Source: a virus
Taxonomy: Duplodnaviria; Heunggongvirae; Uroviricota; Caudoviricetes
IMG/VR virus record: IMGVR_UViG_3300033463_000003
Length of the DNA: 64,000 nucleotides
Direction: 5' to 3' (one strand)
The translations under genes and the position numbers were made by a program. The notes under the pieces were generated by a model. The model was not told the DNA's origin and ran no database searches. It saw only the letters and a program-made list of their open reading frames with translations. Of this stretch, positions 544 to 64,000 are shown one piece after another (the stretch's first letter is position 1; every line of letters starts with the position of its first letter).

Positions 544-2058
544 ATGATACAATTTAACTCAGACCATATTATTGTTGGACAAATAAAGCAATTACTACAT
601 TCTTTTAACTTACCAACCTATCGTGTTTATACAAAAGAACAAAGGCAATATTATGAAAAAACTGGCCAAGAATTAAATGTAATTTCTTCTGTCCCAATTA
701 TAACAGGTTCTACAAATATTCCTGATCATGTAAGATATATTGATTATATTAAAGATAATAAAATTCAACGTTATTATGCTGAAACAACAATCGTAAATGG
801 CACTGCAGTAGTTAAAGCACCAAGCTGGCATGAAACAGGTAAAACATATTATTATAATAAAAAAGAATTAAATAGAACTAAAAATTTAAAAATTACTAAT
901 AATATTTATGATACTTATACTCATGAATATTTAGGAAATTACTTAAGATTTCAACGTGATTATAATGGTATCAATTTAATGCCATTCTACAACTGCTTTA
1001 GTAATAATATTGTTTCATCATCTTTAAAATATGAAATACAAACAAGTGGCATTGCTGCTGATGAAGCTGGATATAGCACAAAAATAATTAGTACATTTGA
1101 TACAAGTAATGATAAGTATAAAATTTATATGGTACCTGTAAAGGCATTCCAAACATATACTATCGCTGTTGATAGTGCTGATGGACTTGAGCTTTGTTGT
1201 GGTATCTATGATAAATACAGTGATACTCGTGAAAAATTAGCACATATTCCATCACTTACATACCTTAATGTAAAATCTGCTTCATTTAATCACCCATTTT
1301 TATATGACAAATTATTAGACATTACAAATAGTATGTCTGAGGAAAGTAATGCGGAGTTAGCCACTATTGAAAAAAATCTAAAGCTTTTTATCAAATTACC
1401 TGCTGAAAATAAGTCAACAATTGTAATTTTGGAAGGAAATTATTGTAGTTGAAATGATAAATCTGTGTATGAAGAAATTTCAAGTAGTGGCCAAACAAAA
1501 ATGCAATATACTAATTTTGCTCAAACAAATATTTATAATAATCATATTGTAAATAACTATGAAAAAAATACTAGCTCAATATTTGATACCTATCCAGATT
1601 TTAATGAAAGAAATATGCAATTTATTACTGCACTACAATTACTGTTATTAAACACTGGCCAACAATATCCATTTTCTGATAAGCTAATTGAATTTTTAAC
1701 TGATAATGTAATTAATCCATTAGATACTATTTCTGATAATATTAAACGTGCTCAAACAGTTATAAAAGAAAATAATAATGAAATAGATGTTGATGGTATT
1801 TGGTCTGGAGAAATGCAAGCAATTTTATATGACTTTGTAAATTCAAAAACAAGCTTAAATAATATTACTTCTAGTGATAGAGTAGATTGTATAGGCTATG
1901 GCGACAAAGTTGTTGAAAAAGCTTATAAGAGTACCAAAATTACTACCACACGAGTTGGTGATAAAACAAAAAGAACCAGGGAAGTTATTAATACTCTTAA
2001 TGATATTAATCTTTATGAAAGTACATATAAAAATAATTATAAAGGAGGAAGTAAATAA
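544..2058 (+). CDS. Virion/tail-associated protein, 504 aa (code 4)
   Basis: SD AAGGAGGA then ATG 544; track ORFs 523-1452 and 1465-2058 share a frame and join through TGA 1450. Confidence 0.7.
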
Positions 2059-2060
2059 CT

Positions 2061-2696
2061 ATGCCAACAAATATAATTGATGAGCCATATCCAACCGATA
2101 CTTACCCTTTTCCTGATAACTATATTTATATTTCACACTTAGATGAAGGATTAAAATTCTGGCGTATTCCATGCTGGCCAGATGCAATTTCTGATACTAT
2201 GCAATCTAACTTTGCAACAACAACTGCTTTAGGTCGTTCTGCGCCTGTTTACACATTTAGTAATGCCGGCCCAAGAACTGTCCAAATAACTATTGCTTTG
2301 CATAGGGATATTATGGACGATGTTAATACTGGTGTTAGTAATTCTGAACTTGCTATGGGTGAAGATTATATTGATAATTTAGTAAATGCTTTAAGAGCTA
2401 TTGCTGTTCCAAGATACAATCTTTCAAATAAAGCTGTTGAACCACCCCTTGTTGCACTTAGACTTGGGCGTGAAGTTTTTATTAAAGGTGTTGTTACAAG
2501 TGGCATAGGTATTGATTTTACTAAACCAATTCTAAAAAATGATAGATATGCACAAGTTAATTTATCATTAGCAATTTCTGAAGTTGACCCATATGACGCA
2601 ACATCTGTTTATCAAAATGGTGGATTTAGAGGTGTCGTTCAAACATTTAAAGGAAGTCACCCAACTCAAAATGGTATTGATGGTATGGGCTTATAG
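2061..2696 (+). CDS. Tail tube initiator / baseplate protein
   Basis: Motif LGRSAPVYTFSNAGPRTVQI and position between tape measure and LysM-like gene. Confidence 0.6.
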   Translation: MPTNIIDEPYPTDTYPFPDNYIYISHLDEGLKFWRIPCWPDAISDTMQSNFATTTALGRSAPVYTFSNAGPRTVQITIALHRDIMDDVNTGVSNSELAMGEDYIDNLVNALRAIAVPRYNLSNKAVEPPLVALRLGREVFIKGVVTSGIGIDFTKPILKNDRYAQVNLSLAISEVDPYDATSVYQNGGFRGVVQTFKGSHPTQNGIDGMGL

Positions 2697-2708
2697 GAGG
2701 TATAATTT

Positions 2709-3038
2709 ATGGATACACTAAAAGATAAAAAATATAATAGCTTTGATTATACTTGTCGCTATACAGACGTCCCATATTATTATAATATAAAAGATAAAAA
2801 ATATATTTATGGAATTGGCAGTAACTTAAATAAACAAACTGCTTATATTGCCCATAAAGTAAAAGAAACTGATACTCTTGATTATCTTGCTTTAAAATAC
2901 TATAATAACCCAACTTTCTGGTGGATTATTGCTTATTTTAATGATATTCAAGATGCATTTATTAAATTAAGTGATAAATATAGTGTACTTAATATTCCTA
3001 GTATATCTAGTATTCAATTTGGAGCTGAAAGAGAATAA
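2709..3038 (+). CDS. Baseplate LysM-like protein (P2 gpX / T4 gp53-like)
   Basis: HKVKETDTLDYLALKYYNNPTFWWIIAYFN motif. Confidence 0.75.
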   Translation: MDTLKDKKYNSFDYTCRYTDVPYYYNIKDKKYIYGIGSNLNKQTAYIAHKVKETDTLDYLALKYYNNPTFWWIIAYFNDIQDAFIKLSDKYSVLNIPSISSIQFGAERE

Positions 3039-4364: not shown

Positions 4365-5207
4365 ATGCTAACAAAAGGTGAAATTCAAAGTATAGATTTT
4401 ACAGGCAATTCTTGTAGAATAAGAATACCTCTTTTTGAAGTAGCTGGTATTGAAGATAAGGTATATGCTACCGCTTATTTTGCTGTTGAGCCTGGAAAAT
4501 ATAATAGCTATAAACCTGGTGATGTTGTCATTATTGGTTTTGAATCAGACCTCATTGATAAGCCAATTATCTTAGGAAAGCTTTATACAAGTATTAATGA
4601 AGACCAGCTTGATGATAATGGCTACCGTGGAAGTATTGATTGTACTAGCTTAAAAGTTAAAGAAAATGCTTCAATTCCAATTAGTACAAAAATAATTAAA
4701 AATGCATTAAGTGTTAAAGATGATGCTGCAACTACAACTATTAATGATATTATTAATACTATAAATACCAATAAAACGGATATTGAAAACATTAAGAAAA
4801 ATCTTGATATAACTAATGATAATTTAAATTATAATGAACAATTACTTTGGGAAAATCCTGCACCAAATAGTGCTTTTGCTGCACAAGATATTGCACTAAA
4901 TATGGATTATACTAAATTTAAATATATAGTTATTTTTTATAGATTTTACTTTGGCAATTGTGTTGAGCAAAGCCTGAAAATTATTCCACCAAATATTGTA
5001 GATAATATTATGGACAGTCATAATCAAACATTTATAACTGGTGGAAACTATGCAAATGACTGAGCCAGCCGCCAAATTGACTTTATTGACAGAACACATC
5101 TTAAAGTATATACTGGTAAAAGAGTGGATGCAAATAACCCAACTAGTGGTACAAATAGAACTGAATTCTGTATTCCAACTAAAATATATGGTGTAAATAA
5201 CCTATAA
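4365..5207 (+). CDS. Baseplate spike (gpV/gp5 OB-fold-like) with C-terminal extension, 280 aa (code 4)
   Basis: CRIRIP...GDVVIIGF...PIILG pattern; TGA 5061 read through to TAA 5205. Confidence 0.65.
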
Positions 5208-5273: not shown

Positions 5274-5663
5274 ATGACATCAATAAAATTCCCAAATATG
5301 TTTAATACAAATAGCACAAATGTATGAAAAAGTAGTGAACATAATGAAGCCACTACTCAGAATACAATTATTTTATTACACTGTGAGCGTGGTGAACTTT
5401 TTGATGACCCATACTTCGGGTTAATGTTAAGGCACTATATGTTTGACCAAAATAACTATGTGCTTCGTGATGCAATTGCTGATATGGTTTATACTCAACT
5501 TGCATTATTTATTCCTCAAGTACATGTTAAACGTGAAGATATTAGAATTATTCAAAATAAACAAAAAGGAAAATTATATTGTGTATTTAAAGGTATAAAT
5601 CAAATTGACTATAAAACTAATACATTTAATTTGACTTTATTTGAAAATACAGAAGCATTATAA
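5274..5663 (+). CDS. Baseplate wedge / sheath initiator (gp25-like), 129 aa (code 4)
   Basis: SD GAGGAG; TGA 5325 read through; ERGELFDDPYFGLML gp25-type motif. Confidence 0.8.
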
Positions 5664-42228: not shown

Positions 42229-42241
42229 GAGGAAATAATTT

Positions 42242-42977: not shown

Positions 42978-42978
42978 T

Positions 42979-43731: not shown

Positions 43732-43801
43732 AAAAATTTAAAAAAACTATTTACAAATACTTTAAAGTACGTTATGATGTAATATGAAGGAGGAGAGAGT
43801 T

Positions 43802-44158: not shown

Positions 44159-44234
44159 AAAATAATTCAACTGACTATTTACATTTATCTCGAAATATGT
44201 TATAATATTATTAAGAAAAGAGGTAAAGTAAATT

Positions 44235-44684: not shown

Positions 44685-44761
44685 AAAACAAAAAAATGAA
44701 AAAAACCTATTTACAAAGTAGGTTTTTTATGTTATAATATAATAATAAGGAAGGTAAGGTT

Positions 44762-45277: not shown

Positions 45278-45328
45278 CTATTTACAAGTTAATCTTTTTG
45301 TGTTATAATATTATAAGAGGTGAAGAAT

Positions 45329-45916: not shown

Positions 45917-45917
45917 A

Positions 45918-46259
45918 ATGGAAAAAGAAAAATTTGAAGAATTTGAAGAAGATGTAGAACTAAGTGAAAGACCTATCACTTATGAAGTCTGGATTTTAGG
46001 CTACGACGAAAATTATGAAGATAATGATTTTGAATTTTTATTGGACGATGGTTATACAGAACTCGTCGAAGCTAAAAAGTGTTTTGAATATTTCACTATT
46101 CCAGAAAATTTAAAAGCTTATCTCGATCTTAAGAATGTTAAAATTCCAGAAGACACAAAACATATCAATCTTTTCTTAGAAGAATGTGTGCAACTTCCAG
46201 ATTCAGACCTTGTAGAATGCGATGACATTTTAGAAGAAGTTGAAGTGGAAATTCTTTAA
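45918..46259 (+). CDS. Early acidic protein
   Basis: SD GGAG. Confidence 0.7.
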   Translation: MEKEKFEEFEEDVELSERPITYEVWILGYDENYEDNDFEFLLDDGYTELVEAKKCFEYFTIPENLKAYLDLKNVKIPEDTKHINLFLEECVQLPDSDLVECDDILEEVEVEIL

Positions 46260-46325
46260 AAAACTATTTACAAGCACAAATATATATTGTATAATATAAT
46301 ATAGAATTATAATGAGGTGAACTTT

Positions 46326-46610
46326 ATGAGAAGTAAATATTTAGGAAGAAAGTTCGGACGTTGGACCGTAACTCGTGCAGCAAAAACAGAAGATGGTAAT
46401 CATACCAGATTTTATCTAACAAGAACAACTCACGACGGAGCAATTAAAACAGTTGCACTTCGCGACAATGAATTAACCGCTTTAAGTCGTGGTGAAAAAA
46501 CAATGCAAAGTTTACTTAAGGGTAAACAATTTCAAAGAGACAGATTTCCAAGCAGAGAATATAGAAACTCAGTTTGGTATACTTATAAAACTAATGGTAG
46601 CTTAGAATAA
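46326..46610 (+). CDS. Basic hypothetical protein
   Basis: Promoter plus SD GAGGTG; YLGRKFGRWTV. Confidence 0.7.
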   Translation: MRSKYLGRKFGRWTVTRAAKTEDGNHTRFYLTRTTHDGAIKTVALRDNELTALSRGEKTMQSLLKGKQFQRDRFPSREYRNSVWYTYKTNGSLE

Positions 46611-46639
46611 TTTTAAGCTACAGAAGGAAGGTAAAGGGT

Positions 46640-47533
46640 ATGGCAAATGAACTTTTTGTGCAGTCAAGAACTTATGCACAGCTATTAAAACAGAATAAGG
46701 GCATTGACTATTCCACTTGTAATGTAGATACATTAGCAGATGGTTATTGTGATGCAACAGATGCTGGAGATGAATATGAAAGAACATTATTTATTTCCGG
46801 ACTTGTTTTACGTTTTTGGTTTGCAGTAAAGAAGATGCAAGAGAAGTCACCGAATTTAGGATATGATCAAGACGAATTCGCTGACTGGCTTTATGAAGCA
46901 CTAGAATATGCATGTAAATACAGAGCATGGCGCGATCCTGATAAAAAAGTAAATGCGCAACAGGCAATAAATCAATGTATTGAAACTATCAGGCTCCAGC
47001 ATTATTATCAGCTAAATTTACAAAAACATAAAACTAATTTTAGCACTATTTCACTTGATACTCCTGTCGCAGGAACAGATGAAGAATCATTAACTTTATT
47101 TGACCAAACAGAAGATGAACAAGCAGAACAAGATATGAAAGAAACTAAAGGTGCACTTACAGCTCGTGCGATCGTGCAAGCTTTTATCGATAAGAAAGAT
47201 TTAGTGGGTGCAGTTATATCGGACCTCATCGCGTTCAATGATTTCAATAAAGAAATTAAGACAACTAATAAATTTATTGATGATGAAACTGGTGAAGAAT
47301 GCAAAACTACTAACTACAGTTATGAGTTTTGGCCATTCAAAGCAGTTCAAGCAATGAAGGAACTTCCAAATGATTATGCAGAGTATTTTATTGAAAACTA
47401 CAATGTTAAACCAGAAGCTATTATTGCAGTAATAGAGGCCATTAGACGCGCGAATAGTGCTAAACTATATAAATACTTAAGAGACTTTTTAAGTAAGGCT
47501 AAAACTACGTTTAAATATCAGGAGGCTTGTTAA
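46640..47533 (+). CDS. Putative phage sigma-factor-like protein
   Basis: Region-2-like DQDEFADWLYEALEYACKY and region-3-like TISLDTPVAGTDEESLTLFDQ. Confidence 0.5.
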   Translation: MANELFVQSRTYAQLLKQNKGIDYSTCNVDTLADGYCDATDAGDEYERTLFISGLVLRFWFAVKKMQEKSPNLGYDQDEFADWLYEALEYACKYRAWRDPDKKVNAQQAINQCIETIRLQHYYQLNLQKHKTNFSTISLDTPVAGTDEESLTLFDQTEDEQAEQDMKETKGALTARAIVQAFIDKKDLVGAVISDLIAFNDFNKEIKTTNKFIDDETGEECKTTNYSYEFWPFKAVQAMKELPNDYAEYFIENYNVKPEAIIAVIEAIRRANSAKLYKYLRDFLSKAKTTFKYQEAC

Positions 47534-48246
47534 TGAACTTAGATATTTTATCAATTCGAAACTGTACGTTGAACATAAATGAGAAGCTTATTCAGATGAT
47601 CGGTTTGGATACCGCAGCTTACTTAACAGTGGTTTTAGACGCACTTCATCAGGCTGTAAAAAAGAACAAAGTTAATGATGAAGGCTTTTTCAAACTCGAC
47701 AGAAAGTATGCAACTGAAAGAACAGGCTTATCAACTACAGAACAGAAGCATTGTGATGAAAGACTCATGGCTCTCAACCTAATGAAGCGTGATCCAGAAG
47801 CACTAAATTCGTTATCTGTCGATGTTGGAGCTGTTGTACAGTTCATTCAACAGGATGATGCGAAATTCATTGATCAAGTTAAGTTAACTTTAGCAAAAAC
47901 TAAAAAAGTAGAAGCTGAAGAATATAAAAGAGAACAAATTATTAGAATTGCGAAGGCACAGGTGAAAACAACCGATTTTGAAATTCGTCAATCTATTTTC
48001 GATTGGATAGAAGCGATGGATGGAACTCTAAAGAAAGCACAAGTTGGTTTGGTTGAAGACGCAGTTGATAATTATTCTAAAGATAAACAAACAAGAATTA
48101 AAATTTTTCAAATCTTAGCAATTAACAACTGGCGCGACCCGCAGTGGGCAATTCAAAGATACGAAAGAGACTACAAACCTAAAGGTTTAGGGGAACAAAA
48201 GACAGCAACCTCTCTCGCAGACGTTAATATGAGAAAGGCATTCTAA
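47533..48246 (+). CDS. Putative replication initiator (N-terminal winged helix)
   Basis: LIQMIGLDTAAYL..GFF..ERTGLSTTEQ pattern of phage initiators. Confidence 0.55.
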   Translation: MNLDILSIRNCTLNINEKLIQMIGLDTAAYLTVVLDALHQAVKKNKVNDEGFFKLDRKYATERTGLSTTEQKHCDERLMALNLMKRDPEALNSLSVDVGAVVQFIQQDDAKFIDQVKLTLAKTKKVEAEEYKREQIIRIAKAQVKTTDFEIRQSIFDWIEAMDGTLKKAQVGLVEDAVDNYSKDKQTRIKIFQILAINNWRDPQWAIQRYERDYKPKGLGEQKTATSLADVNMRKAF

Positions 48247-48249
48247 ATT

Positions 48250-48528
48250 ATGATAAATAAAAATTATTTAGTTGATTATTTATCCAACTCGCGAGAATAT
48301 GATAATTTGGAAAAGAGAATTATTGAATTAGAAGATGCAATTCAAACATGCGATGATTGCATCGAGGCTCTCGAAAATTCCAGTAAAGATTTCACAAATA
48401 GTTTGGATAATCTTGCAAGACAAAGAAACTTACTTAACTTGGAAAGAATTGAACTTGCAATTAGAAAAAATAAGATCGAAAAAGATATGTTATTGTTCGA
48501 AATAGACCAGAGCACAACATCTGAATAA
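48250..48528 (+). CDS. Coiled-coil hypothetical protein
   Basis: Operon spacing; terminator at 48544-48575. Confidence 0.6.
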   Translation: MINKNYLVDYLSNSREYDNLEKRIIELEDAIQTCDDCIEALENSSKDFTNSLDNLARQRNLLNLERIELAIRKNKIEKDMLLFEIDQSTTSE

Positions 48529-48766
48529 ATTAGACCTTCCTTCAAGCTCAGCAGAATATCACTGTTGAGCTTTTTATTTTGCGTACAGTACGATGTACAG
48601 TACGTACAGTACAGCTACAGTACTTCCTGAAATTCCACTAATAAGTAGTTTATTGGGTCACCATAAATTCGATGTTGATGTGTGTGGTTTGTGGAAATAA
48701 AAATTAACAACTAACTATTTACATTTAGGGTCAGTTGTGTTATAATAATAATGTGAGGTAAATAAT

Positions 48767-48940
48767 ATGAGTTCAATTGTTAAAAAGTTAATTCAAGAGA
48801 CGTGGGTCGACTACTTCTCCGGAAACAAAGAAGAAATCTTAAAACAAGTTGATAAAGAAGCATTGGAAGAATATCAAAGTGCAATGTTGAGACTTGAAAC
48901 TGATTTTGATTTTCAAAGAGAGTTAGGAATTGGAAACTAA
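48767..48940 (+). CDS. Early hypothetical protein, 57 aa (not in track)
   Basis: Promoter 48718 plus SD GAGGT. Confidence 0.6.
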   Translation: MSSIVKKLIQETWVDYFSGNKEEILKQVDKEALEEYQSAMLRLETDFDFQRELGIGN

Positions 48941-48941
48941 T

Positions 48942-49319
48942 ATGCCTATTGATTATAATGATTGGAAAGAGTTTGTTCAAGGCAAATTAAATTGTAAGGT
49001 AAAACAAGAAGATAAAGTTCGAACTTGTATAAGGCTTGATACTCAAACTTTAATTAACTCATTAGACGGGGAGTCAAAACAGTACGTTTTGGACGTTGCA
49101 AAAGGGCAGGCAGAGAAGTATGGAAATCTAAATGTCTGGTCTGCGGTAATTTATGACTATCATGTTGAAATAAATATGGGTGAATGGTTTATTGCTGTTT
49201 ACTTTAGTCCAGAAACTCATAATGCAACTAACTGGGTTGGAAATGCAAGAGGTTCAAAGTTTGAACTACAACTTCTACAAATTGCAAAAGAACTTCATCA
49301 ACAACTTCAAGATTTATAA
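48942..49319 (+). CDS. Early hypothetical protein
   Basis: Coupled to previous gene; terminator follows. Confidence 0.65.
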   Translation: MPIDYNDWKEFVQGKLNCKVKQEDKVRTCIRLDTQTLINSLDGESKQYVLDVAKGQAEKYGNLNVWSAVIYDYHVEINMGEWFIAVYFSPETHNATNWVGNARGSKFELQLLQIAKELHQQLQDL

Positions 49320-49344
49320 GAACTGAAACTTCAGTTCTTTTTTT

Positions 49345-49715
49345 TATTCCAATAAAAATTCGATCCGCCGAAATTGATGAATCTGGCAGAAAGTCAAATC
49401 CAACTAAATTAGTGAAATTGTACTATCTTCGTTCCTGATCAGATTTTGAGGTGACAAGTCTGATGAAGAGTTCGGTAAGACTGATGATTGTACAGATGAA
49501 TTCCGATGTTGTACAGATGAAAAAGCTTTTTAGTGGTTTTTTAGCCTGATGCATGTACGATGCGCAGCGTACTGCAGAGCGAACTGCGCAGACGATTCCG
49601 ATCCTGTAACAGGATCTGCGCAGATGAATTAGAATCGTTTAGTAGTTAGTGGTTTTAACTTCACCTCCACATGAATTCGGAAATTTTTCGTGGCATATTG
49701 GTTTAGTCGAAAAAA
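49345..49715. repeat. Non-coding palindrome-rich island with three TTAGTG-core motifs
   Basis: Cores at 49409, 49530, 49646. Confidence 0.65.
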
Positions 49716-49781
49716 AGTTAATTTGGTTATTTACAAATTAAGACTAATATGGTATAATATAATAAAGAGAGGAAAAGAAAT

Positions 49782-50225
49782 ATGAAACCAAAAAGAACTG
49801 CAATTACAAATTATTATGATTGTTATGAAGTCGGTTATATTAAATTAGGTTGCGTTGGTAATGGTAATCCAGACCATCAAGATAGAACAGTTATTACCAG
49901 AACATTAAATCTTGGTGGTGTTCAAAGACTTGCTAATGTCTACGGAATTAAATTTGTAAACAATGATGATATTTACGCAACTGGTTATTATATAAAAGAA
50001 GTTGAAACAACCAAAGACCCTGATACTTTTGTAAATGAATTAGATAAACTAGATGAAGTATTTATGGAAGAAGCGGAATATAGACAAGCACTTAAACAAA
50101 TTCGTCAAATGTCAGACACACTAAATTATGGTGTATTATCTGAAGATGAGTGGAATAAGCTATCAAAAGAACTAGATGTTCTTGTTGAAAGGTCAAAAGA
50201 ATTAGACAGAAAACTTCATTATTAA
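49782..50225 (+). CDS. Early hypothetical protein
   Basis: Promoter plus SD. Confidence 0.7.
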   Translation: MKPKRTAITNYYDCYEVGYIKLGCVGNGNPDHQDRTVITRTLNLGGVQRLANVYGIKFVNNDDIYATGYYIKEVETTKDPDTFVNELDKLDEVFMEEAEYRQALKQIRQMSDTLNYGVLSEDEWNKLSKELDVLVERSKELDRKLHY

Positions 50226-50308
50226 GTTGGTAAATAAATACCAACTTTTTATTTACAAAGTCGACATTATGTGGTATAATATAAATATAAGAAAGAAGGA
50301 AACTAATT

Positions 50309-50524
50309 ATGACATTAAGAGATAGTTTGTTAAAAAAAGTTCCGGCAGATAATTATGTTAAAATTTATGACGAGGACTGGTTTGTCGCAATGTGTTATGT
50401 TGATGATGAAGATTTATTCATTAGATATATGGACGACGAATTATTAAGTCGTGAAGTTGACATTATTACAATGGTTGAAGATGGAGATTTTACAACTGAT
50501 ATTTATGATATTTATTTGAAGTAG
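50309..50524 (+). CDS. Early acidic protein
   Basis: Promoter plus SD. Confidence 0.65.
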   Translation: MTLRDSLLKKVPADNYVKIYDEDWFVAMCYVDDEDLFIRYMDDELLSREVDIITMVEDGDFTTDIYDIYLK

Positions 50525-50534
50525 GAAATAAATT

Positions 50535-50663
50535 ATGGAAATGTTAAGTAAGATTATAATTCAATTATTGGCATGCTTCATTGGTTGGCAAATTGGTAAA
50601 TTTATCGCAATTAAAATAATGATAAGAAAGGCAATGAAAGAAAACAATGAAGAAGAATTATAA
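50535..50663 (+). CDS. Small membrane protein, 42 aa (not in track)
   Basis: IIIQLLACFIGWQIGKFIAI hydrophobic segment. Confidence 0.5.
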   Translation: MEMLSKIIIQLLACFIGWQIGKFIAIKIMIRKAMKENNEEEL

Positions 50664-50787
50664 AGTTATTGTTTTGAATATGGGGGAGGAACTTGAAACT
50701 CTACATTATCATAAAACAATAAAGCAAATTAAAAAACAATATAATCTTGAGAAACTTGAGATTGTATCTATTGAAGAGATTAACTAA
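50647..50787 (+). CDS. Small hypothetical protein, 46 aa (not in track)
   Basis: Open frame ending in a terminator hairpin. Confidence 0.4.
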   Translation: MKKNYKVIVLNMGEELETLHYHKTIKQIKKQYNLEKLEIVSIEEIN

Positions 50788-51043
50788 ATTGGTTAATCTT
50801 TTTTATTTACAAAGTTGGTAAGTCGCGCTACGATGTACATGATGAATGTAGATGAAAGCTTTTAATTCCACTAAAAGAAAGTTAAGCTAATATATCTGAT
50901 GCAGCTGTACGAGATGCTCTTGAAATTGGACTGATTTGAACTTCACAAGAAATTCGAAGAGTTGAAAAAAAGTTAATTTGGCTATTTACAAGTTGGGGTA
51001 AATATGGTATAATATAATAAAGAGAAGAGAGGAAATAAAATTT

Positions 51044-51370
51044 ATGAAATTTAGAAACTATCATCAAGTCTTAAAAGCAAGAGGTTATAAGGTAAGGGAG
51101 TTGTCAAAGTATCAAGGTTTAAATGTATTCGAGAAAGAACATTTATATAATAAGATAGTTTGCACAATTATGAAAGATAGTCACGGCAAGGGGCAAACAA
51201 TAACTTTCAATATCTACAATACTCTTAGAACTCCAAAGAATATGATTGAGTTTGGAGACGCCGAATTTGATAGAAGTTATCTTGTTAAAGAGGCTAAAGT
51301 TATTGTTGAGGCTTTTGAGAAACTAAGAGAGATGAAAGCACCTGTAAAATATATTTATTGTTTCAATTAA
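51044..51370 (+). CDS. Early hypothetical protein
   Basis: Promoter plus SD. Confidence 0.7.
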   Translation: MKFRNYHQVLKARGYKVRELSKYQGLNVFEKEHLYNKIVCTIMKDSHGKGQTITFNIYNTLRTPKNMIEFGDAEFDRSYLVKEAKVIVEAFEKLREMKAPVKYIYCFN

Positions 51371-51399
51371 GGTTAGATGAAAATCTAATCTTTTTTTAT

Positions 51400-51855
51400 T
51401 TACATTTGTCTAAGAATATGCTATCATGTACATGATGAAGCTGGATCACAGCTTCTTTTTTCACTAAAGAGAAGTCATAGCTTCACAGACTGATCAGCTG
51501 AACAGACTGTAGAAGTCGAACTTGAGCAGTCGAACTGATCTGATGAATTCAGATGAAAGCTTTTGTGAAGCTAAATTAGTGGTTTTAACTTCAGATGCAT
51601 GTACGATTGTACGATGTTGTAGAACTGTAACTCACAGATTGTAACTGTTACAGTCACAGCTGTACAGATCAGATGCGTAGATGCAGAAGCTAATTAGTGG
51701 TTTTTATACAAGCTACATGTACGATGTAGATGTACATGAATACAGTTCGAGAGCATGACTACAGATACTGTTACAGCTACAGTGCGATGTAGATGTAGAT
51801 GAAGCTAATTAGTGAAACATTGGATAAGCAGATCAGATTCTTGAGATGCTCGTGA
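51400..51855. repeat. Non-coding palindrome-rich island with GAAGCTAA(A)TTAGTG repeats
   Basis: Cores at 51576, 51694, 51809; inverted half-site at 51462. Confidence 0.7.
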
Positions 51856-51942
51856 TAATAAAATAAAAAATATTTCAACTTGCTATTTACAAATAATTAA
51901 AAACATGTTATAATATATATAGAAAGTGAGGTAAGACAAATT

Positions 51943-52218
51943 ATGAATCTTACAAAAGTTAATGGTTGTTATTCTAAAGAACTAAGAGAAGCAACAACTG
52001 ATATTAAATTATTATTAAAAGAAAGAACAGTCGACGTTGAGACAATGAGAGAGTTTGTTAATACTATCATTGAGCCGGCATTTATAGAAGCAAAAGCCAA
52101 AGCAAGATTTAAAGAAAATCTAAATGCCTGTCAAACAAAAGAAGAGATTGATAATCTTTGTTATATGGCAGTCATTCATGGAATGTATTATACTCCACAT
52201 AAAAAAGTTAATTGTTAA
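51943..52218 (+). CDS. Early hypothetical protein
   Basis: Promoter plus SD. Confidence 0.7.
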   Translation: MNLTKVNGCYSKELREATTDIKLLLKERTVDVETMREFVNTIIEPAFIEAKAKARFKENLNACQTKEEIDNLCYMAVIHGMYYTPHKKVNC

Positions 52219-52812
52219 TGTTCCATATAGTTTCTCTTTTTGCGGGAAGTCGAAGAACTAAAAACTCTTCGGCTTTTTCTTTTGTCCAATTAGAAGTCGA
52301 GCTTCTCGTTTGTGATCAGCGCGTGAGAATCTAAGAAGCTAATTAGTGGTTTTAGTTTAAGCTGTACAATCTGATACTGTACGTGGATCGAAATTCTGCC
52401 TCGCGACTAATTAGTATGTAGAAGTAAAAGACAGATACTATATATGTAGCAGATCGAAGTTGGATAATATATAGATAAATTTAGTAATATATATGTTTAC
52501 ATGCATGTAAGTTATAGCATAAAAGTAGCTAAATGTAAAGAGTAATATTGGTATATAGATAGTATATATGGGTCTAGATATAGTATATATTAGGCTAGAT
52601 CATAGCTATTTTGGGCTATAAAAAAGGCACTAAAAAAGCCCATAATCTGGCGTAGGGGCGGGGCTAATTTTGGCACCCTTAGCGTTTGTCCTAGAGAGCA
52701 ATATTTTTTCGTACGTACGCGCGCACACGCCTATACGCATAAAAAGAAGAGCAGCAAAATGAGCTGCAAAAAATTATTGTCTTTACTGTATAATATATAA
52801 GAGGTTTAAAGT

Positions 52813-52968
52813 ATGAAAAAATTTGGTGTTAATTGTACTACTGGACTACATAAAGATGATATTTTTAAATATGATGACCAATGGTACCGTATTGTAAGAG
52901 TAAGTGCAAAAGAAAAATCAGTTACTTGTGTTAAAATTAAAGAGCCTACTGATATAGTAAAAGACTAA
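52813..52968 (+). CDS. Hypothetical protein, 51 aa (not in track)
   Basis: TGTATAAT promoter plus SD GAGG. Confidence 0.55.
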   Translation: MKKFGVNCTTGLHKDDIFKYDDQWYRIVRVSAKEKSVTCVKIKEPTDIVKD

Positions 52969-52983
52969 GGTGGAATAGCTATA

Positions 52984-53229
52984 ATGAAAAAGAAAAATAG
53001 TAAATTAAAATTAACTTTAAAAGACTTATCAAACAAAGAAAAAGTTATTGCCTACTTAGATGAACATTATACTAAAGGAGATATTTTTGAAATTCTTTGT
53101 GATGCAGAATTAGTTATTGACTGTGAAATTCCATGGAGAACTACAAAAATGGAATTAATTGAACCATACTGGGAAGAATTAGCAGATATACTTATTGTGA
53201 GTAATGGTGAGGTAAATTTAGATGAGTAA
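52984..53229 (+). CDS. Hypothetical protein
   Basis: Operon spacing, SD. Confidence 0.65.
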   Translation: MKKKNSKLKLTLKDLSNKEKVIAYLDEHYTKGDIFEILCDAELVIDCEIPWRTTKMELIEPYWEELADILIVSNGEVNLDE

Positions 53230-53548
53230 AGACAGAGAAGCTTTTTATAGAATATGCCAACGCTGTACTAGTAATCCTTTTGACGAAGAATACTATACTA
53301 TTACTGATGATATGCCAGAAGAAGTAGAGATAGTTGAACAAGCACTTATTAAAGCAGAAATAGAACATAAAGCCCTTGAAATAATTAATGACAAAGAAGT
53401 TAATATGTATATGCTTAAATGGTATTTTAAGTATTCTAGTTATGAACAATATGTTAAAGATTTTAATAACCCAGACTATGATGACCCTACTTTAGGTGAA
53501 GAGCTATTAACTGAAGAAGAATATAATTTATTAAAGGAGATTTTCTAA
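53222..53548 (+). CDS. Hypothetical protein; C-terminus resembles that of 54938
   Basis: YEQY..LTEEEYNLLKE vs YEEY..LTEFVFEALKN. Confidence 0.65.
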   Translation: MSKDREAFYRICQRCTSNPFDEEYYTITDDMPEEVEIVEQALIKAEIEHKALEIINDKEVNMYMLKWYFKYSSYEQYVKDFNNPDYDDPTLGEELLTEEEYNLLKEIF

Positions 53549-53550
53549 TT

Positions 53551-53862
53551 ATGCCACATTATTGCTTTAAACAACCAAATAACAAATATACAGTTTGGTC
53601 CACTATTGTAGATGCTCCTATCTTAGTTAATGCTTCTAAGAGTTATGTCTGGAAGTATGAAAATATTAGAGATGAACTTGAGTGGAGAAACTGGGTTAAA
53701 GAAAGTTTAGATATTGCTCTTGATGAAGGCGACATAGAATGTTGCTTATATAATGGTAATATGAGTAAAGAAGAACTACTTAAATATTTTAAAGAAATTA
53801 AATACTCAGGTCCTTTATATACATATGCTAAAGACTGGGTTAGAGAAGAAGAGGAAGAATAA
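53551..53862 (+). CDS. Hypothetical protein
   Basis: SD AAGGAG; KQPNNKYTVWSTIVDAP. Confidence 0.7.
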   Translation: MPHYCFKQPNNKYTVWSTIVDAPILVNASKSYVWKYENIRDELEWRNWVKESLDIALDEGDIECCLYNGNMSKEELLKYFKEIKYSGPLYTYAKDWVREEEEE

Positions 53863-53864
53863 TT

Positions 53865-54134
53865 ATGTCATTTGATCAATTTATTTTTACTTGCATACTA
53901 AGGTTAGTAAAACAATCAAGAAAACTTACAGAAGATAAACTTTATTTTCAATATACTTATTATCCGGATTTACCATTATCTGGGAGTAGCTATAAGTGTC
54001 AAGTAAAGGGAACTAAGATTAAAATATATATTACACCTAATGAAGAAGTTTGTCAATATTATAATAAAGATGACCGCTTTATAAATCTTGGGTCTCTTAG
54101 TGAATGTTTAAATAAGTTTGTTGAGGAGCTTTAA
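53865..54134 (+). CDS. Hypothetical protein
   Basis: Operon spacing. Confidence 0.6.
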   Translation: MSFDQFIFTCILRLVKQSRKLTEDKLYFQYTYYPDLPLSGSSYKCQVKGTKIKIYITPNEEVCQYYNKDDRFINLGSLSECLNKFVEEL

Positions 54135-54135
54135 T

Positions 54136-54387
54136 ATGATAGAATATACATTAGATTCATTAGTTCACTTATATGATAGTTTAAATAATCAAATTGAAAT
54201 ACTTAGAAATGATTTAAGTGAATTTAATAAAATTGGTACTAGCCAAAATCTTACTGATGAATATAGAGCTGAAATAGAAGAAGCTCGTAAAAGAATTGAG
54301 AAAAGATTTGAAAAGCTTACTGATATGAGAGATGCAACTGAAAGACTACTTCATACTCTCTTAAATGAGGAGCTTAAAGGACTTTAA
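54136..54387 (+). CDS. Coiled-coil hypothetical protein
   Basis: SD GAGGAG. Confidence 0.65.
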   Translation: MIEYTLDSLVHLYDSLNNQIEILRNDLSEFNKIGTSQNLTDEYRAEIEEARKRIEKRFEKLTDMRDATERLLHTLLNEELKGL

Positions 54388-54390
54388 TAT

Positions 54391-54906
54391 ATGCCAACTA
54401 AATTATTTACTAATGCCCTTGAGGCAGGCGCAGATCTAAGTTGTTTTCATGCTCCTGATAGAAAGTGGAAGAACTATTACTTTGAAGATAAAGAGCAAGA
54501 TTTATTATTCTTAGTTCCTACATTTCTTTTTTATGGAATTATAGTTGTTAATTTATCTTGGGCGAGACAAGCAACCTTCACAACTAAAGATGGGGCTATT
54601 CATAAATTTAAAGATTATGCTTGGAATATGTCTTCTAATATAAGAAAGTCTAGCTATCCTAAAGCTGCTGTTATAGATAGAACTGCAAAATGTGGTAGAA
54701 AAACTATCTTGCTTGACTTACTTGTCTTAAACCGTCTGTATCAAGAAACTAGCGATGGTGATAGATTTGCCGCTAATCATCTTAATGGCAATAAGCTTGA
54801 CTGTAGACTTTGTAATTTATCTTATGGCATATTAAAAGAAAATAATGATAGTAGATATTCTAAAAAAGTCCCAGAAGTTAAGTATCCTTGTAAAATCTGG
54901 TGGTAG
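54391..54906 (+). CDS. HNH-motif endonuclease-like protein
   Basis: ANHLNGNKLDCRLCNL. Confidence 0.6.
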   Translation: MPTKLFTNALEAGADLSCFHAPDRKWKNYYFEDKEQDLLFLVPTFLFYGIIVVNLSWARQATFTTKDGAIHKFKDYAWNMSSNIRKSSYPKAAVIDRTAKCGRKTILLDLLVLNRLYQETSDGDRFAANHLNGNKLDCRLCNLSYGILKENNDSRYSKKVPEVKYPCKIWW

Positions 54907-54937
54907 ATTTACTGTATAATATAATAAGGAGATTTAT

Positions 54938-55312
54938 ATGAGAGACGAAAATAGAATTGATATTGTTTTAAGTGAAATAGGAAAAATTTGGCACAAGTTT
55001 CCAGACTTAAGACTTGGCCAACTTATCGGAAATGTCCTTGAAGGACCTAATCTTTATTATGTTGAAGATGATGGACTTGTTAATGCTCTTAGAGATATGT
55101 ATAATGGTGAGCATGAGCCTATTAGTTTTGATGATGATATGTATATCTTAGATTTAATTAAAGAGAACCCTGAAGAATTAGGTTTCGTACTTAGCTCTAA
55201 GAATTATGAAGAATACTTAAAGACTTATGAAACAGTAGGTGGGACAGATAAACCTGCTCTTACTGAGTTTGTATTTGAAGCTCTTAAAAATTATTTTGGC
55301 GGTGAAGAATAA
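54938..55312 (+). CDS. Conserved-looking phage protein (MRDxxRI..WxxxPDLRLGQL)
   Basis: TGTATAAT promoter plus SD AAGGAG. Confidence 0.7.
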   Translation: MRDENRIDIVLSEIGKIWHKFPDLRLGQLIGNVLEGPNLYYVEDDGLVNALRDMYNGEHEPISFDDDMYILDLIKENPEELGFVLSSKNYEEYLKTYETVGGTDKPALTEFVFEALKNYFGGEE

Positions 55313-55949: not shown

Positions 55950-55986
55950 GAAGCTTACGGGCTTCTTTTTTTGCTAAATTATTGTG

Positions 55987-57480
55987 ATGAATACATTTGA
56001 TAGGGCTTGACAAAATTTAAATGAAAAATTTGGCGATAATCCAATACCAGAAAAGATTTTTATTTCTTTATGGGAAGTTTTAAATAAACTTAATACTGGC
56101 TGGAAATGGCTGATTGATAGAGATAGTATTCGTAAAAATGGAACTAGTACATTAGATTATACTATTACTTTAGATAAGAAAACTTATGATGCAGATAAGC
56201 ATAGTTGGAAGTGCTATTTTATTTGTACTACAGATGATTTTGATTTTGAGTCCGATTTTTTTACTGATAACCCACAGCCAGTTCAAACTCCGGGGCTAAA
56301 TGCTACTGAAGAATATGAATTTGCTAGAGGAGGGTCGGCCATCTATAAAAAGCTTACAGATTTATTCTACGACAGACCAACCAGCAAAGAAATTACTAGT
56401 AAAACTCGACAATTTCTTGCGACTGACCCATCAATAGACCCGCTTCTTATTGCTTCATCTCATCTGGCGACTTTTCAATTTATGTTTTTAGATGTCCCAA
56501 AAGCTTATAAAGATAAAGATACTGGAGAATATAAAATAGTTCCTGGTACAAAATTAATAATTCGTGCCGATATTGAGTGGATTTATTTTGATAATTTTAG
56601 AACCTCTCATAAACAAAAATTTAATGAATTTACTTGTAGATTAGTTGATAAGCTTAATACTGGCGCCACTGGTCATTTAGTTCTTCAAGACCCAAGTAAC
56701 TACCTTATTGGCTTAAGAACTCGCATGCAAGATGCTTTAAATGGTTCTGGGTTAGCTAATAAGTATAGACCAGAAGATATTTATATTGATAGCCCAATTG
56801 AACTAGATATAGATAAAGTAAGAGATTGGGTGCGAGACCATCTGACTCTCGGGTATAGACCAGCAGCTAAAGATAGAGACTTATTATCATTATTTATTGA
56901 TAAAAGTATTCTTCAAAAAATGTATTATAAAAAAATTCCTGTTATTTATTTAGTATATTGGAAAGCTTATAGTAGAGTTGGTTATCCAGAGACTCAAGCT
57001 TGGGTAAGTTCTTCTCCAACAAGAGTTAAATATGAAATTCCTGAATGCTTAATTATAGGGTATACTAATATTTCAAACTTAGATGACATGTCTCTTGATA
57101 GAGCTCTTGGACTTGTGATGCTCAACCAAGTTACAACTAGTAAAGCTGACGAGGACGAAATACGAGATGAAATTATAAATTCTATAGAAAAAGTAGAGAT
57201 TTATATAATAAAAGATACTAAAGAAGAATTTTCTACTGATATTACAGTTGAATTTGCTTCATTTATAGAAAATTATAGAAATGAGAAAAATAGAGCTGTT
57301 CGTAGGCAGATGTATGAAAAGACGAAAAAGCAATTAGAAGGAGTTGCTTATGAGCTTCAAGTTAGAGATATAACTGGAGAGGGAACTTTTAAAGGAGTTG
57401 GCTTTGACGACCATCTACAGGCACTGCTAAATAATGATGTTAGAGTTATTAAATTTACTATAACTGATAATGATTTATAA
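55987..57480 (+). CDS. Late protein with shared N-terminal leader, 497 aa (code 4)
   Basis: TGCTAAATTAT at 55972; MNTFDRA[W]QNLNE; open into track ORF 56482. Confidence 0.75.
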
Positions 57481-57553: not shown

Positions 57554-58138
57554 ATGAAAATTATTGAAACAGAGTTTGATAAAATATATGAAGAGCTTAG
57601 TAATTTAAATGAAGAAGTTTTTTCTGATGAAACTATTAAAAATTACTATCAAAATTGTAATAGGGCATTTAGTGAAAAAGTAATTAAAAACTTTATGTTA
57701 TTTAAACAAAAGATTATAAAAGATTGAAACACTGAGTTTTTTACAAATAAAGCTACTTGAGATATGGCAACTTCAATGTATATAAAATTAGCCACAGAGT
57801 GAAATAAATGATATAATACAGGTAAAATTACTGAATTAGAACTGGCAAAGACCAATATAAAAAGCTTATATGATCAATTAAGTAGCACTACTAATAAATT
57901 ACAAAATAGCTCAGAAATAAATAAGCAATCAAAACAAACATTATTAGAACTTTGTAATATATTATCTAATTTGTATAAAAAATTAAATACTACTAATTAT
58001 ATATTCTATACAAAGCCACAAAACTATTGTAAGATTACAACTGCTCAAGCTTTATTTGAAAATGAGCTTAAAACATTTTTAAAACCATTTATAGATAATT
58101 TAACTATTTTTAATGATATATGTAAGAAAAATAGTTAA
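57554..58138 (+). CDS. Late protein with shared leader, 194 aa (code 4), absent from track
   Basis: TGCTAAATTAT at 57538; MKIIETEFDKIYEELSNLNEE; 4 TGA, no TGG. Confidence 0.75.
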
Positions 58139-58166
58139 ATATATTATTTTGCTATATTATACAGAT

Positions 58167-59228
58167 ATGAAAAATTTAGTAGAGACAGAGTTTGATAGCT
58201 TTTATGATGCAGCTACTAAAGCTAATTCTTTTATTAAACAACAGATAGCTATCCCAGGTAAAGAAGGCAAATTTTTGGCTGTACGAGATTTTATTCCACT
58301 ACAAAAGCTTGATTTTACTGATCCAGTATTTACTAAAAATGGTATTTATATTTATCAAGGAAAAAAAGAAGATGGTACTTATGGTTACTATGTAGGTAAA
58401 GCAAAAAATTTAGGAAGACGCACAATAGAACACTTGCGTAGATATAATAGTTTAAAAGTTCCTGATTCACCAGCTCTTCATGCAGCTTTACGTAAGCATG
58501 GACTAAATAATTTTAGTATAGCAATTCTTGAAACTGATATAGATGATTTAGATGCAGCTGAACAAAATTGAATTAGAGACTTAAATACTTATCTTGATAA
58601 AGAAGATTATAATTTAACAGCTGGTGGTGAAGGTGGCTATACACAAGAACCAAAGTTAACAGAAGAACTATTTAGAGAAATAGTAGAGCGCCTTGTAAAT
58701 ACTGATGAAGCTATGTCAGATATTGCTGCTTCTTATAAACAGATTGAAGACGGTAAAGTAGTATGGTCTCTTGGGGTAACAACTATTAAAAATATATGCT
58801 ACGGTAATAATGATTTACCTGCATACCAACAGGAATTTAAGAAAACATTGTCTAGTGAATATACTTGGCCGCTTAGAACAAGAGAAGAAAGAGTCAATGC
58901 AGGCAAAAAAGCAACAAAAGAAAAATCTCTTAGCAAATTTGTTGGATTTTTACCTGAAGACGAAGATTTAACGACTCCAATAAAAGTTGTTTATGGAACA
59001 AATGATATTGCCAGGTTAGAAGAGCCAGATATATTTAATGCTTTATCTTCAGATAGGCAAGAAAAATATGGCTATAGAAAAATTGGTAAGTTTCTTAATG
59101 GCTATAATACGGGTAAAAGCATAGTTTCTCCAAAAAAATCTTATCAACCAGCAGGTTATAAGTATAGATGAGCTAAATTTGATACTTTAACAGATGAAGT
59201 TAAATCTAAAGTAGAACTACTAAAATAA
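58167..59228 (+). CDS. GIY-YIG endonuclease with shared leader, 353 aa (code 4)
   Basis: GIYIY..YYVGKAKNLGRR..H; AEQN[W]IRDLNT..YNLTAGG; TGA 58569 and 59169. Confidence 0.85.
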
Positions 59229-59259: not shown

Positions 59260-59466
59260 ATGCCAAAAAATTGAAGAAGAGACCAAATTCAAGAAACATG
59301 AACTGAAGAGCAGTGAAATCAAATGTGTAAAGATGCCGAGTCAGGAAAGTCTACTGGTGAAATTGGTGATTGAAATGAGTTTTATAATACAGTAAAACAT
59401 GCTGATGACCCAGATATTATTGAATGAAATAAAATATATAATGGTGAGATAGTCCCTAATGACTAA
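59260..59466 (+). CDS. 68-aa protein with five TGA-Trp codons, absent from track
   Basis: SD TAAGGAG; frame open to TAA only under code 4. Confidence 0.65.
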
Positions 59467-62252: not shown

Positions 62253-62255
62253 TAT

Positions 62256-63110
62256 ATGAAATTTACTTTAAGCGAAGCCGTTTTAAAAGAAGATGATGCC
62301 GTTTTTGATATAGAAGAAGAGGCATCTTTTGGTAGAGGGCTTAGTGTCAGTAGTTCAGTTACTAAAACTTTAGAAAAAGAAATTGATAACTGAGAGATTA
62401 CTGATAAGACCGACGCTTTTAAGACTTGGATTAAACATATGGAGCAAGAAGTTATTAAAGAAAATTATCAAGTTACCTCTACTGATATTTTTGCTGTAGC
62501 AGATGACTTTATTATAGAAGTTTTAGGCCTTGATTTACGTGGCCCAGAAATGCAATATGGTTTAGTTGGTTATGGCGTAGAAATGATGTTTGACAAGCCA
62601 ATTGATAATACTTCAGGGGTTTTGCCTCCAATACCGTATTGAGATAATAGGGATAAGAAGTTAAAAAAACATATTGTTCATAAAACTATGGAACCAGCAA
62701 TTTTAGTTGCTTGACATAGCCAATATGTTAGACAAATGGGGGCATTCCCAGTAGCACAGCTTTTATTAGACGGTGTTCCAGCTGATACTATTATAGGAGC
62801 CCTTAAACATGTTTGGTTTCTAGAAGAAAAGAGATCAGAGTTAGACCTTACAAAATTTTTAAGAAAAACATATTTAGATTATTTATATGCAAAAAATCAT
62901 AAAGATTTTAATACAGTTAAAAAAATTAAAGAAAAACTAACAAAATTTTTAGATGATGTTAGTTGGGAGCTCATTTGTCGAGATGAGGGCAGTGATATAA
63001 AAAATATCATTAATGGTAAAGGATTCAATGAAAGCTCACCTCTATTTGACTGGTTAGATAAACCAGGGTTTAGAATAGATAGCTTTAAAGTTACGGATTT
63101 GGACCTTTAA
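62256..63110 (+). CDS. Late protein, 284 aa (code 4)
   Basis: MKFTLSEAVLKED; three TGA join track ORFs 62439 and 62736. Confidence 0.7.
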
Positions 63111-63112
63111 TT

Positions 63113-63340
63113 ATGATTAAATATACTTACGAAGACTATGATGAAGCTTATTGTAGCAACCAAGTAGAAAAATGTCAAGAAATTGGCAATATTTTATTAG
63201 AAAAGTTAAATACAAAAGAAGCAAAACAACTTATTAAAAGATTGAATTCAATAAATATAGAAGATAGTAGCGAGCAAGGAAGGAAAGACAGAGCTGAAAT
63301 ATTACTTGATGTAAAAGTTTGGTTAATGATTAATGAATAA
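63113..63340 (+). CDS. Hypothetical protein
   Basis: Operon spacing. Confidence 0.55.
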   Translation: MIKYTYEDYDEAYCSNQVEKCQEIGNILLEKLNTKEAKQLIKRLNSINIEDSSEQGRKDRAEILLDVKVWLMINE

Positions 63341-64000
63341 TTTTGATAGAGCTTATAATAAATTAAATTCACTTCATGAAGACTTTAAAACTCAGCGAGA
63401 GGTTAAAGACTTTTTTGGAATTGCTTTAATTGACCTTGTTGAACAATTAATGAAAGCTTTACCAAATACTTCTTGGGAGTTAGTTTCACCAGTTTATGAC
63501 CCAGAAATTATTAATGACCCTAAGACTGGCGAGCAAACTATTATAGCTTCAGCTGGAATTCAATGTCTTACAACTGATTTTGATATTCAAAAAGATTTTG
63601 ATTTTGATCATCCGATTATGCATCAGGGCTGAGAAGAATATAGGCTTAGAAAAATGAGTCAGACTCTTTTAGATTTAATTAACTATATGTGTGATTTTGA
63701 AAATCATGGAATTAGCTTAGGTAAATATATTCCAGGAAATTCTGAGCTTGTCATTAAGATCTCCAATATAGATTTTCTTAAAGAGCCATATGCATTTAAG
63801 TATCTAAATTCACCAAATAATCCAATAAAAGTATCAAAATTTGCGCAAGAATTACTAGTTAAATTTACCGTTACCTTGGCATATAATGAAGTTAATAAAG
63901 AGGCAGCTACTAAAATAACTCCAAAAGATAATATTGCGACATTCCTTACTAAGATGTCTGTTAAAGTTCAAGCTGAACACAATAGTAAACCAAGTCTTAA
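63333..64000 (+). CDS. Late protein with shared leader (3' truncated, code 4)
   Basis: MNNFDRAYNKLNSLHE; two TGA; open to window end. Confidence 0.7.

Follow-up and report, generated by a model that had tools for sequence, protein, structure and literature searches.

How a phage gene is expressed when the same stop codon interrupts its frame again and again is the question raised by IMG/VR virus record IMGVR_UViG_3300033463_000003 (Caudoviricetes). We analysed a 64,000-nucleotide (nt) stretch of this DNA, hereafter the window, for which a first-pass annotation had proposed that TGA is read as tryptophan (code 4), with more than 20 genes hidden or fragmented as a result. We found TGA in frame within intact genes, alignments that support tryptophan as the residue it encodes, a partition of TGA use between blocks of genes, and matching decoding machinery in relatives of the phage. 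The explanation that we judge highly probable is that this T4-like jumbo phage itself carries the means to change from the standard code to UGA = Trp.

TGA occurs in frame within intact genes

The five motifs on which the first-pass annotation had based its proposal are all present, with TGA exactly where it was claimed to be. These are SVSF-TGA-IN at nt 13497, T-TGA-YHITAVY at 13710, KVEYGTTATP-TGA at 14388, EQN-TGA-IRDLNT at 58560 and FDRA-TGA-QNLN at 55996, the last having a paralogous motif, FTEAWDNLN, at 61848 in which tryptophan is encoded by TGG. Same-frame fragments that are split by TGA join into long open reading frames (ORFs) once TGA is treated as sense, and re-calling the genes with table 4 against table 11 raised the coding coverage accordingly. 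The longest ORF grew from 1088 to 1709 amino acids (aa), and ORFs of at least 300 aa rose from 29% to 47% coverage, a value that stayed at 29% when TAG was treated as sense instead. Single Pfam matches run across the TGA in both the anaerobic ribonucleotide reductase NrdD (residues 114–718, TGA at aa 246) and an SNF2-family helicase (residues 100–389, TGA at aa 130). The genes that had been described as essential and in need of read-through (NrdD, helicase and baseplate) are made whole by a sense reading of TGA, as are the fibre genes.

TGA is the only in-frame stop that we observed, TAA and TAG never occurring within these genes, and it ends no gene in the window, whereas about 10% of ORFs end with TGA in low-GC relatives that use the standard code. 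Overall, TGG outnumbers TGA. Our curated count, made after artefactual ORFs had been removed, is ∼59 credible TGAs in ∼21 plus-strand genes (Table 1), so the earlier figure of over 20 genes was about right. Among the candidates that were discarded, the code-4 ORF at 41217–41642 results from reading an acidic small gene out of frame, and the N-terminal extensions of 40687–41064, 38799–39167 and 32873–33151 were rejected as not real.

That the genome is decaying or was misassembled, so that its TGAs would represent inactivating mutations or assembly errors, is scarcely credible, given the restriction to TGA and the conservation of the TGAs, or their exchange with TGG, across relatives. The same proteins also recur on several independent public contigs from different samples, and the 1154-aa fibre protein is found letter for letter in a public protein collection, where it was called under code 4 on a 273,303-bp contig.

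Alignments support tryptophan as the residue at TGA

The window proteins, with X placed at each TGA, were aligned to DNA from 99 related loci, and the codon facing each X was recorded. TGG was the commonest partner codon (153), followed by TAT/TAC (103), TGA itself (70) and TTT/TTC (46), with glycine codons rare (about 12). Read in the reverse direction, the in-frame TGAs of the relatives face a tryptophan of the window 152 times and a TGA of the window 70 times. A predominance of residues other than tryptophan, glycine for example, was looked for and not found. In a likelihood test restricted to standard-code relatives, each amino acid's substitution profile, taken from the same alignments, was compared with the residues facing TGA. 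Tryptophan fitted best (log-likelihood −275.6), tyrosine was next (−420.4) and glycine fell outside the top six; the margin is overstated because only ∼13 columns are informative and the sequences are related, although the ranking is still clear.

For the first of two fibre proteins with LamG domains, database homologs have tryptophan at 7 of the 12 TGA sites (aa 7, 72, 140, 288, 331, 375 and 573) in near-identical contexts. This evidence is partly circular, because code 4 may have been used to call some of the database proteins themselves. The T-W-YH site of the LamG domain aligns to a pentraxin tryptophan. An all-against-all comparison of the window's own paralogs found them too divergent to inform outside the LamG core. 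At the NrdD site, aa 246, the 119 close homologs mostly have other residues (Phe 64, Tyr 23, Trp 12, Ile 12), while the nearest homologs have tryptophan, as do two of the three solved NrdD proteins at the aligned site. The NrdD position is a variable aromatic one and not a conserved tryptophan.

That TGA might encode another residue, namely glycine (code 25), cysteine or selenocysteine, deserves mention since a 2026 survey of jumbo phages took recoded TGA as glycine (PMC13037316), and since the program ARAGORN labels tRNAs with a UCA anticodon ‘SeC’ by default. We regard this as extremely unlikely. Glycine accounts for ∼12 of ∼500 aligned codons and cysteine is rarer still; the likelihood test places tryptophan far above all others; and the UCA tRNAs of the relatives (below) have a tryptophan anticodon loop and G73, not the architecture of a selenocysteine tRNA, and are co-encoded with a tryptophanyl-tRNA synthetase (TrpRS). 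Code 25, the code of Gracilibacteria and Absconditabacteria, was rejected on the small minority of glycine among the aligned residues. Selenocysteine insertion was rejected on the rarity of cysteine opposite TGA and the Trp-type tRNA, with no search for selenocysteine insertion sequence (SECIS) elements made.

TGA-recoded relatives of the phage encode a suppressor tRNA

By a coverage test, some members of the clade are TGA-recoded, others use the standard code and one, L064 (IMGVR_UViG_3300001598_000233), appears TAG-recoded, its long-ORF coverage being 0.20 with table 11 and 0.90 with TAG as sense. Such a mixture within one clade argues that the code is carried by the phage and not set by the host.

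A tRNA with anticodon UCA is present in all seven TGA-recoded relatives that were examined, intact in six (G002 and G005–G009) and split in G003. The anticodon stem-loop is GUCUUCAAAAC in all seven and differs from that of the phages' own tRNA-Trp(CCA) only by the substitution of U for C34. The discriminator base is G73 in six of the seven, and four have A1-U72. The standard-code relative G004 has tRNA-Trp(CCA), and a UCA tRNA was not found in its tRNA region. In the five records searched for protein components, TrpRS was found in three (G002, G003 and G006; TIGR00233, 304–324 bits) and release factor 1 (RF1) in one (G003; prfA, 467 bits), where it lies directly beside TrpRS. Neither the TrpRS nor the RF1 genes of the relatives have an internal TGA. 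We infer that the window's own genome carries the same suppressor tRNA.

Further features were seen in these relatives. The suppressor tRNAs of G005 (L103, 201–296) and G007 (L141, 8158–8253) measure 96 nt each and carry, between their anticodon and T arms, a long extra arm that is unusual for a Trp-type tRNA. G003 has a match to the c-di-GMP-I riboswitch (L102, 504–578; 49.5 bits, gathering score 35), and an ARAGORN call for a transfer-messenger RNA that adjoins tRNA-Pro (L084, 1091–1496).

TGA use is partitioned, with a TGA-free block rich in sigma-70-type promoters

The distribution of TGA along the window is uneven. The structural genes at 1–25 kb contain 37 TGA and 65 TGG codons, compared with 0 TGA and 74 TGG in the ∼45 small genes at 36.9–55.4 kb (Fisher p = 9e-11). 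The first-pass assignment of code 4 is therefore upheld at the codon level, where TGA = Trp, and not as a description of the whole window, since TGA is absent from the early promoter block.

This block is marked by a dense array of promoter-like elements. The pattern TTTACA-N15-19-TATAAT has 23 matches against 0.57 expected in the window, 22 of the 23 on the plus strand, all located at 27.1–51.9 kb (27140–51914) and 18 of them inside the TGA-free block. Most have the extended −10 motif TGnTATAAT, and nearly all stand in front of small genes. From their sequence, these elements look like putative early promoters for unmodified host RNA polymerase, and with 18 of the 23 in the TGA-free block, the block looks like a set of early genes kept readable under the standard code. 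As to the host, the extended −10 form is a hint of a Firmicutes-like bacterium more than of a member of the Bacteroidota. A second motif, TGCTAAATTAT, has nine exact plus-strand copies, nearly all just upstream of genes, including those at 5247, 17507, 25765, 31002, 55972, 57538, 61160 and 61792, and 20 copies with at most one mismatch against 7.9 expected. It lies just upstream of the TGA-bearing genes at 5274, 17585, 55984, 57554 and 61791, and is a candidate for a middle or late promoter class.

Could the host itself use code 4, like a Mycoplasma, so that the phage merely follows it without driving a switch? The lack of window genes that end in TGA would agree with this, and sigma-70-type promoters with an extended −10 would fit Mollicutes too. 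However, a code-4 host would not impose the avoidance of TGA in ∼45 early genes at 32% GC (0 TGA against 74 TGG, p = 9e-11), and TGG exceeds TGA overall. The relatives bring their own tRNA(UCA), TrpRS and RF1, and sister phages are either standard-code or TAG-recoded. Together, these make a code-4 host quite improbable.

The closest relative, G001, shows that TGA use also varies among virion and neighbouring genes. TGA and TGG counts are 0 and 4 in each of the major capsid protein and the prohead protease, 7 and 5 in the large terminase, 11 and 1 in a fusion of FrhB-like and polysaccharide-pyruvyltransferase domains, and 6 and 1 in a family-8 glycosyltransferase. The last two genes lie between the capsid and tail genes (L188, 6182–9009) and are the most recoded there. 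TGA seems to be avoided where very high output is needed.

The avoidance of TGA by the abundant virion genes of G001 also fits a leaky stop, in which ordinary tRNA-Trp(CCA), which the relatives carry as well, reads TGA inefficiently and attenuates low-abundance proteins without a dedicated suppressor. Nevertheless, every TGA-recoded relative examined has tRNA(UCA), and each LamG fibre gene has 12–13 TGAs, across which low-efficiency read-through would compound to leave almost no full-length product. We consider this explanation very unlikely.

A model for a probable phage-borne switch

The preferred explanation, a switch of code carried by the phage, would operate as follows. The phage would infect a host that most likely uses the standard code, judging from the partition of TGA and the mixed-code clade. 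Early genes behind sigma-70-type promoters would use TGA as neither a sense codon nor a stop and, lacking it, would be read correctly both before and after the switch. A phage tRNA with the anticodon loop of tRNA-Trp and C34 changed to U (anticodon UCA) would then out-compete the host's release factor 2 (RF2) at UGA, assisted in some relatives by the phage TrpRS and RF1. Middle and late genes that contain TGA, encoding the fibres, baseplate, helicase, NrdD and homing endonucleases, would be translated to their full length only when the suppressor tRNA has appeared.

Several observations weigh against this model. No tRNA, RF1 or TrpRS was found in the window, as the first-pass annotation had stated for suppressor tRNA and release factor, and the window has no Rfam match; TrpRS and RF1 were likewise not found in G001, which is a partial record. 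Several TGA columns are variable or aromatic, rather than tryptophan, in the relatives. The early/late split is not clean, as the helicase and NrdD, with a single TGA each, are downstream of sigma-70-type promoters. Finally, the capsid and protease genes of G001 are late and yet free of TGA, and codon efficiency or expression level therefore also seems to shape the pattern.

The suppressor tRNA of one relative is split by an intron

An insertion of 290 nt interrupts the tRNA(UCA) gene of G003 (L154, 14676–15039), which is found 2 kb upstream of TrpRS. With the boundaries given by ARAGORN the loop is irregular, whereas boundaries that follow the group I rule (the 5′ exon ends in U and the intron in G) restore a perfect 5-bp stem. 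The spliced loop then reads CUUCAAAA, the loop of the intact suppressors, and the intron separates anticodon positions 34 and 35. The tRNA-Asn and tRNA-Thr genes of G003 (L152, 9413–10086; L156, 5621–6273) hold related introns in their anticodon loops, and these carry ORFs for PD-(D/E)XK (PDDEXK_5) and HNH endonucleases. All three introns follow U and end in G, and pairings identified by eye give the canonical core order P7-P3′-P8-P7′. Covariation, also judged by eye, is visible in P3 (TCTCG/CGAGA in two introns, GTGGG/CCCAC in the third) and in P7 (GACTTT/AAAGTC versus GAACAT/ATGTTC). The Rfam family Intron_gpI (RF00028) gave no match in five relatives, nor on the G003 intron.

An earlier report mentions, in general terms, introns in tRNAs of jumbo phages with recoding (PMC13037316). 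For G003, the plainer reading is that mobile introns merely invaded several of its tRNA genes, including those for Asn and Thr. It is conceivable, although we think it rather unlikely, that the change to TGA = Trp is gated by self-splicing of the group I intron in tRNA(UCA), in which case full-length fibres, terminase and endonucleases would be made only after intron removal. If split suppressor tRNAs are general, they would help to explain why surveys detect suppressors in only about one-third of TGA-recoded phage genomes.

The standard-code relative G004 also has interrupted tRNA genes. At 188768–194745 (L095, L098, L087), its tRNAs Leu-UAA, Glu-UUC and Gln-UUG have anticodon-loop insertions of 63–123 nt, which are too short for group I introns like those of G003.

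Genome context and gene content

The window has 32% G+C and ∼85 tightly packed genes, nearly all on the plus strand. Recognisable products include a baseplate wedge subunit, the SNF2 helicase, a GIY-YIG homing endonuclease and an EcoRI-type methylase. Both LamG-domain fibre proteins are very large, and the first is followed by an S74 chaperone-type protein. NrdD is accompanied by a radical-SAM activase-like gene, and a formate/nitrite-transporter-like protein is encoded too. The genes that contain TGA are listed in Table 1 together with the TGA-free block.

Table 1. TGA-bearing genes and the TGA-free block of the window, with the residues or codons that face TGA in homologs.
Feature	Coordinates	Strand	TGA positions and support	Residue or codon facing TGA
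Virion-module protein, 511 aa	523..2058	+	nt 1450; code-4 ORF joins two code-11 fragments	Y/F/TGA/W in relatives
Conserved baseplate-module protein, 440 aa	3038..4360	+	nt 3107, 4121	TGG or TGA in relatives at aa 24 (49/77 loci) and aa 362 (76/78 loci)
280-aa protein	4365..5207	+	nt 5061; code-4 ORF	no homolog column
Baseplate wedge subunit (phrog_261)	5274..5663	+	nt 5325; PHROG match	W 12, TGA 12, V 12 in relatives
Structural protein, 1553 aa	5679..10340	+	nt 5745, 9012, 9696	aa 23 in relatives: Y 26, TGA 13, W 9
Two tail-module genes, 218 + 476 aa	11176..13286	+	nt 11374, 11626, 12792; code-4 ORFs	sparse columns, mainly aromatic
LamG-domain fibre protein, 1154 aa	13296..16760	+	12 TGA, 11 TGG; Pfam Laminin_G_3, 2e-36	
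Fibre-like protein, 725 aa	17585..19762	+	nt 18407; phrog_25468, code-4 ORF	
Second LamG-domain fibre protein, 1707 aa	19792..24915	+	13 TGA, 19 TGG; Pfam Laminin_G_3, 1e-31	aa 1290, 1314: TGA in closest relative, W in a database homolog
103-aa gene, weakly supported	27712..28023	+	nt 27739, 27868	in relatives, aa 10: S/T; aa 53: Y 29, G 6, F 4
SNF2-family helicase	28060..29766	+	nt 28447; Pfam SNF2-rel_dom spans TGA	W 22, Y 11, G 4, TGA 2 in relatives
NrdD, anaerobic ribonucleotide reductase	34120..36279	+	nt 34855; NRDD match 3e-149	see text
Formate/nitrite-transporter-like protein	36279..36938	+	nt 36300 (aa 8); Pfam Form_Nir_trans residues 3–201; start ambiguous, alternative start at 36339 avoids TGA	
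TGA-free block, ∼45 small genes, presumed early	36916..55312	+	0 TGA, 74 TGG; 18 sigma-70-type promoters	
498-aa protein	55984..57480	+	nt 56008, in FDRA-W-QNLN (paralog motif with TGG)	
194-aa protein	57554..58138	+	4 TGA, 0 TGG; code-4 ORF; 194-aa call on independent public contig	
GIY-YIG homing endonuclease	58113..59228	+	nt 58569, 59169; Pfam GIY-YIG and phrog_7168/314 span aa 153	
68-aa ORF	59260..59466	+	5 TGA; 68-aa gene call on independent public contigs	
Two genes, 153 + 284 aa	61791..63110	+	nt 62103, 62391, 62640, 62712; code-4 ORFs; 284-aa gene also called on public contigs	
Partial gene running off window	63333..63998	+	nt 63630; public call is a 283-aa product	

Related loci in IMG/VR number 69, several of them on contigs of 220–237 kb that CheckV rates as 100% complete. 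The closest is G001, in which the protein of the query gene is 79% identical. Its genes for a gp23-type major capsid protein, prohead protease, tail sheath and large terminase lie upstream of the syntenic region, and the window is therefore identified as DNA of a T4-like jumbo phage; it is part of a genome of ∼270 kb from gut or rumen metagenomes. Among GenBank phages there was no nucleotide match to the window and, at the protein level, only one unannotated match of 6.9 kb. Searches for related loci with the 498-aa protein, the last partial gene and the 375-aa protein downstream did not find viral relatives.

Just past the window's end, the same phage (L192, 7174–12703) encodes peptide deformylase, an ATP-dependent DNA ligase and a protein of the CCA-adding-enzyme/poly(A)-polymerase family with an HD domain. 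An uncalled gap of 398 nt appears in the public gene map ∼9.75 kb beyond the window's end, with the CCA-adding-enzyme gene a few kb upstream of it. At the place equivalent to ∼9.7 kb past the end, relatives L196 and L200 have no tRNA.

Comparison with known systems and significance

The closest described counterparts are the TGA-recoded Jade and Agate gut phages, in which TGA = Trp and the predicted hosts use the standard code (bioRxiv 10.1101/2021.08.26.457843). Jade phages have a ‘code change operon’ of TrpRS, RF1 and suppressor, with the suppressor tRNA(UCA), TrpRS and RF1 in the standard code; the adjacent TrpRS and RF1 genes of G003 represent this operon. In both groups, recoding falls mainly on structural and homing-endonuclease genes, early or replication genes keep the standard code, TGA stops are depleted and close relatives differ in code; the Jade genome is ∼200 kb (bioRxiv 10.1101/2021.08.26.457843). 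Our phage resembles them in these features: TGA = Trp, a late-gene bias, and TrpRS, RF1 and tRNA(UCA) in TGA-recoded relatives. Unlike in Jade and Agate, sigma-70-type promoters are densely arrayed over the TGA-free block, and G001 has TGA-free capsid and protease genes. A suppressor tRNA split by a group I intron, as in G003, is a further difference and is not mentioned in that paper, where the word intron is used three times, each in connection with a homing endonuclease.

Other recoded phages and organisms share parts of this system. In crAss-like and Lak phages, TAG is reportedly recoded to glutamine (code 15), said to be validated by metaproteomics. They are alike in having a phage-borne suppressor tRNA, recoded late genes and sometimes a matching release factor, and differ in codon, amino acid and lineage, although L064 of the present clade does appear TAG-recoded. 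The table 4 organisms Mycoplasma and Spiroplasma, with their phages, also read UGA as Trp by means of tRNA-Trp(UCA), with RF2 unused at UGA. Their code is genome-wide and TGA dominates over TGG, whereas in the window TGG is the commoner codon and a whole class of genes avoids TGA.

Group I introns in the anticodon loops of bacterial tRNAs are known from cyanobacterial tRNA-Leu(UAA) and from tRNA-fMet, the latter with the PD-(D/E)XK endonuclease I-Ssp6803I. The G003 intron is similar in that it follows U, ends in G and has sister introns with PDDEXK_5 and HNH ORFs. It differs in that the interrupted tRNA is a phage stop-codon suppressor.

TGA-to-Trp recoding in phages, its machinery and its late-gene bias are already published, and public gene calls for this phage already use code 4. 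What is added here is the match of TGA-free genes to sigma-70-type promoters, the occurrence of three codes in one clade, and the group I intron in a suppressor anticodon. Annotation of this phage and its many gut or rumen relatives hinges on TGA = Trp, as table 11 breaks ∼20 genes, including the fibres for host recognition. The match between TGA-free genes and sigma-70-type promoters offers a testable picture of a timed code switch, and a clade with standard, TGA-recoded and TAG-recoded members is a good natural system in which to study code change. If suppressor tRNAs split by introns turn out to be general, they would account for the ‘missing’ suppressors of recoded-phage surveys.

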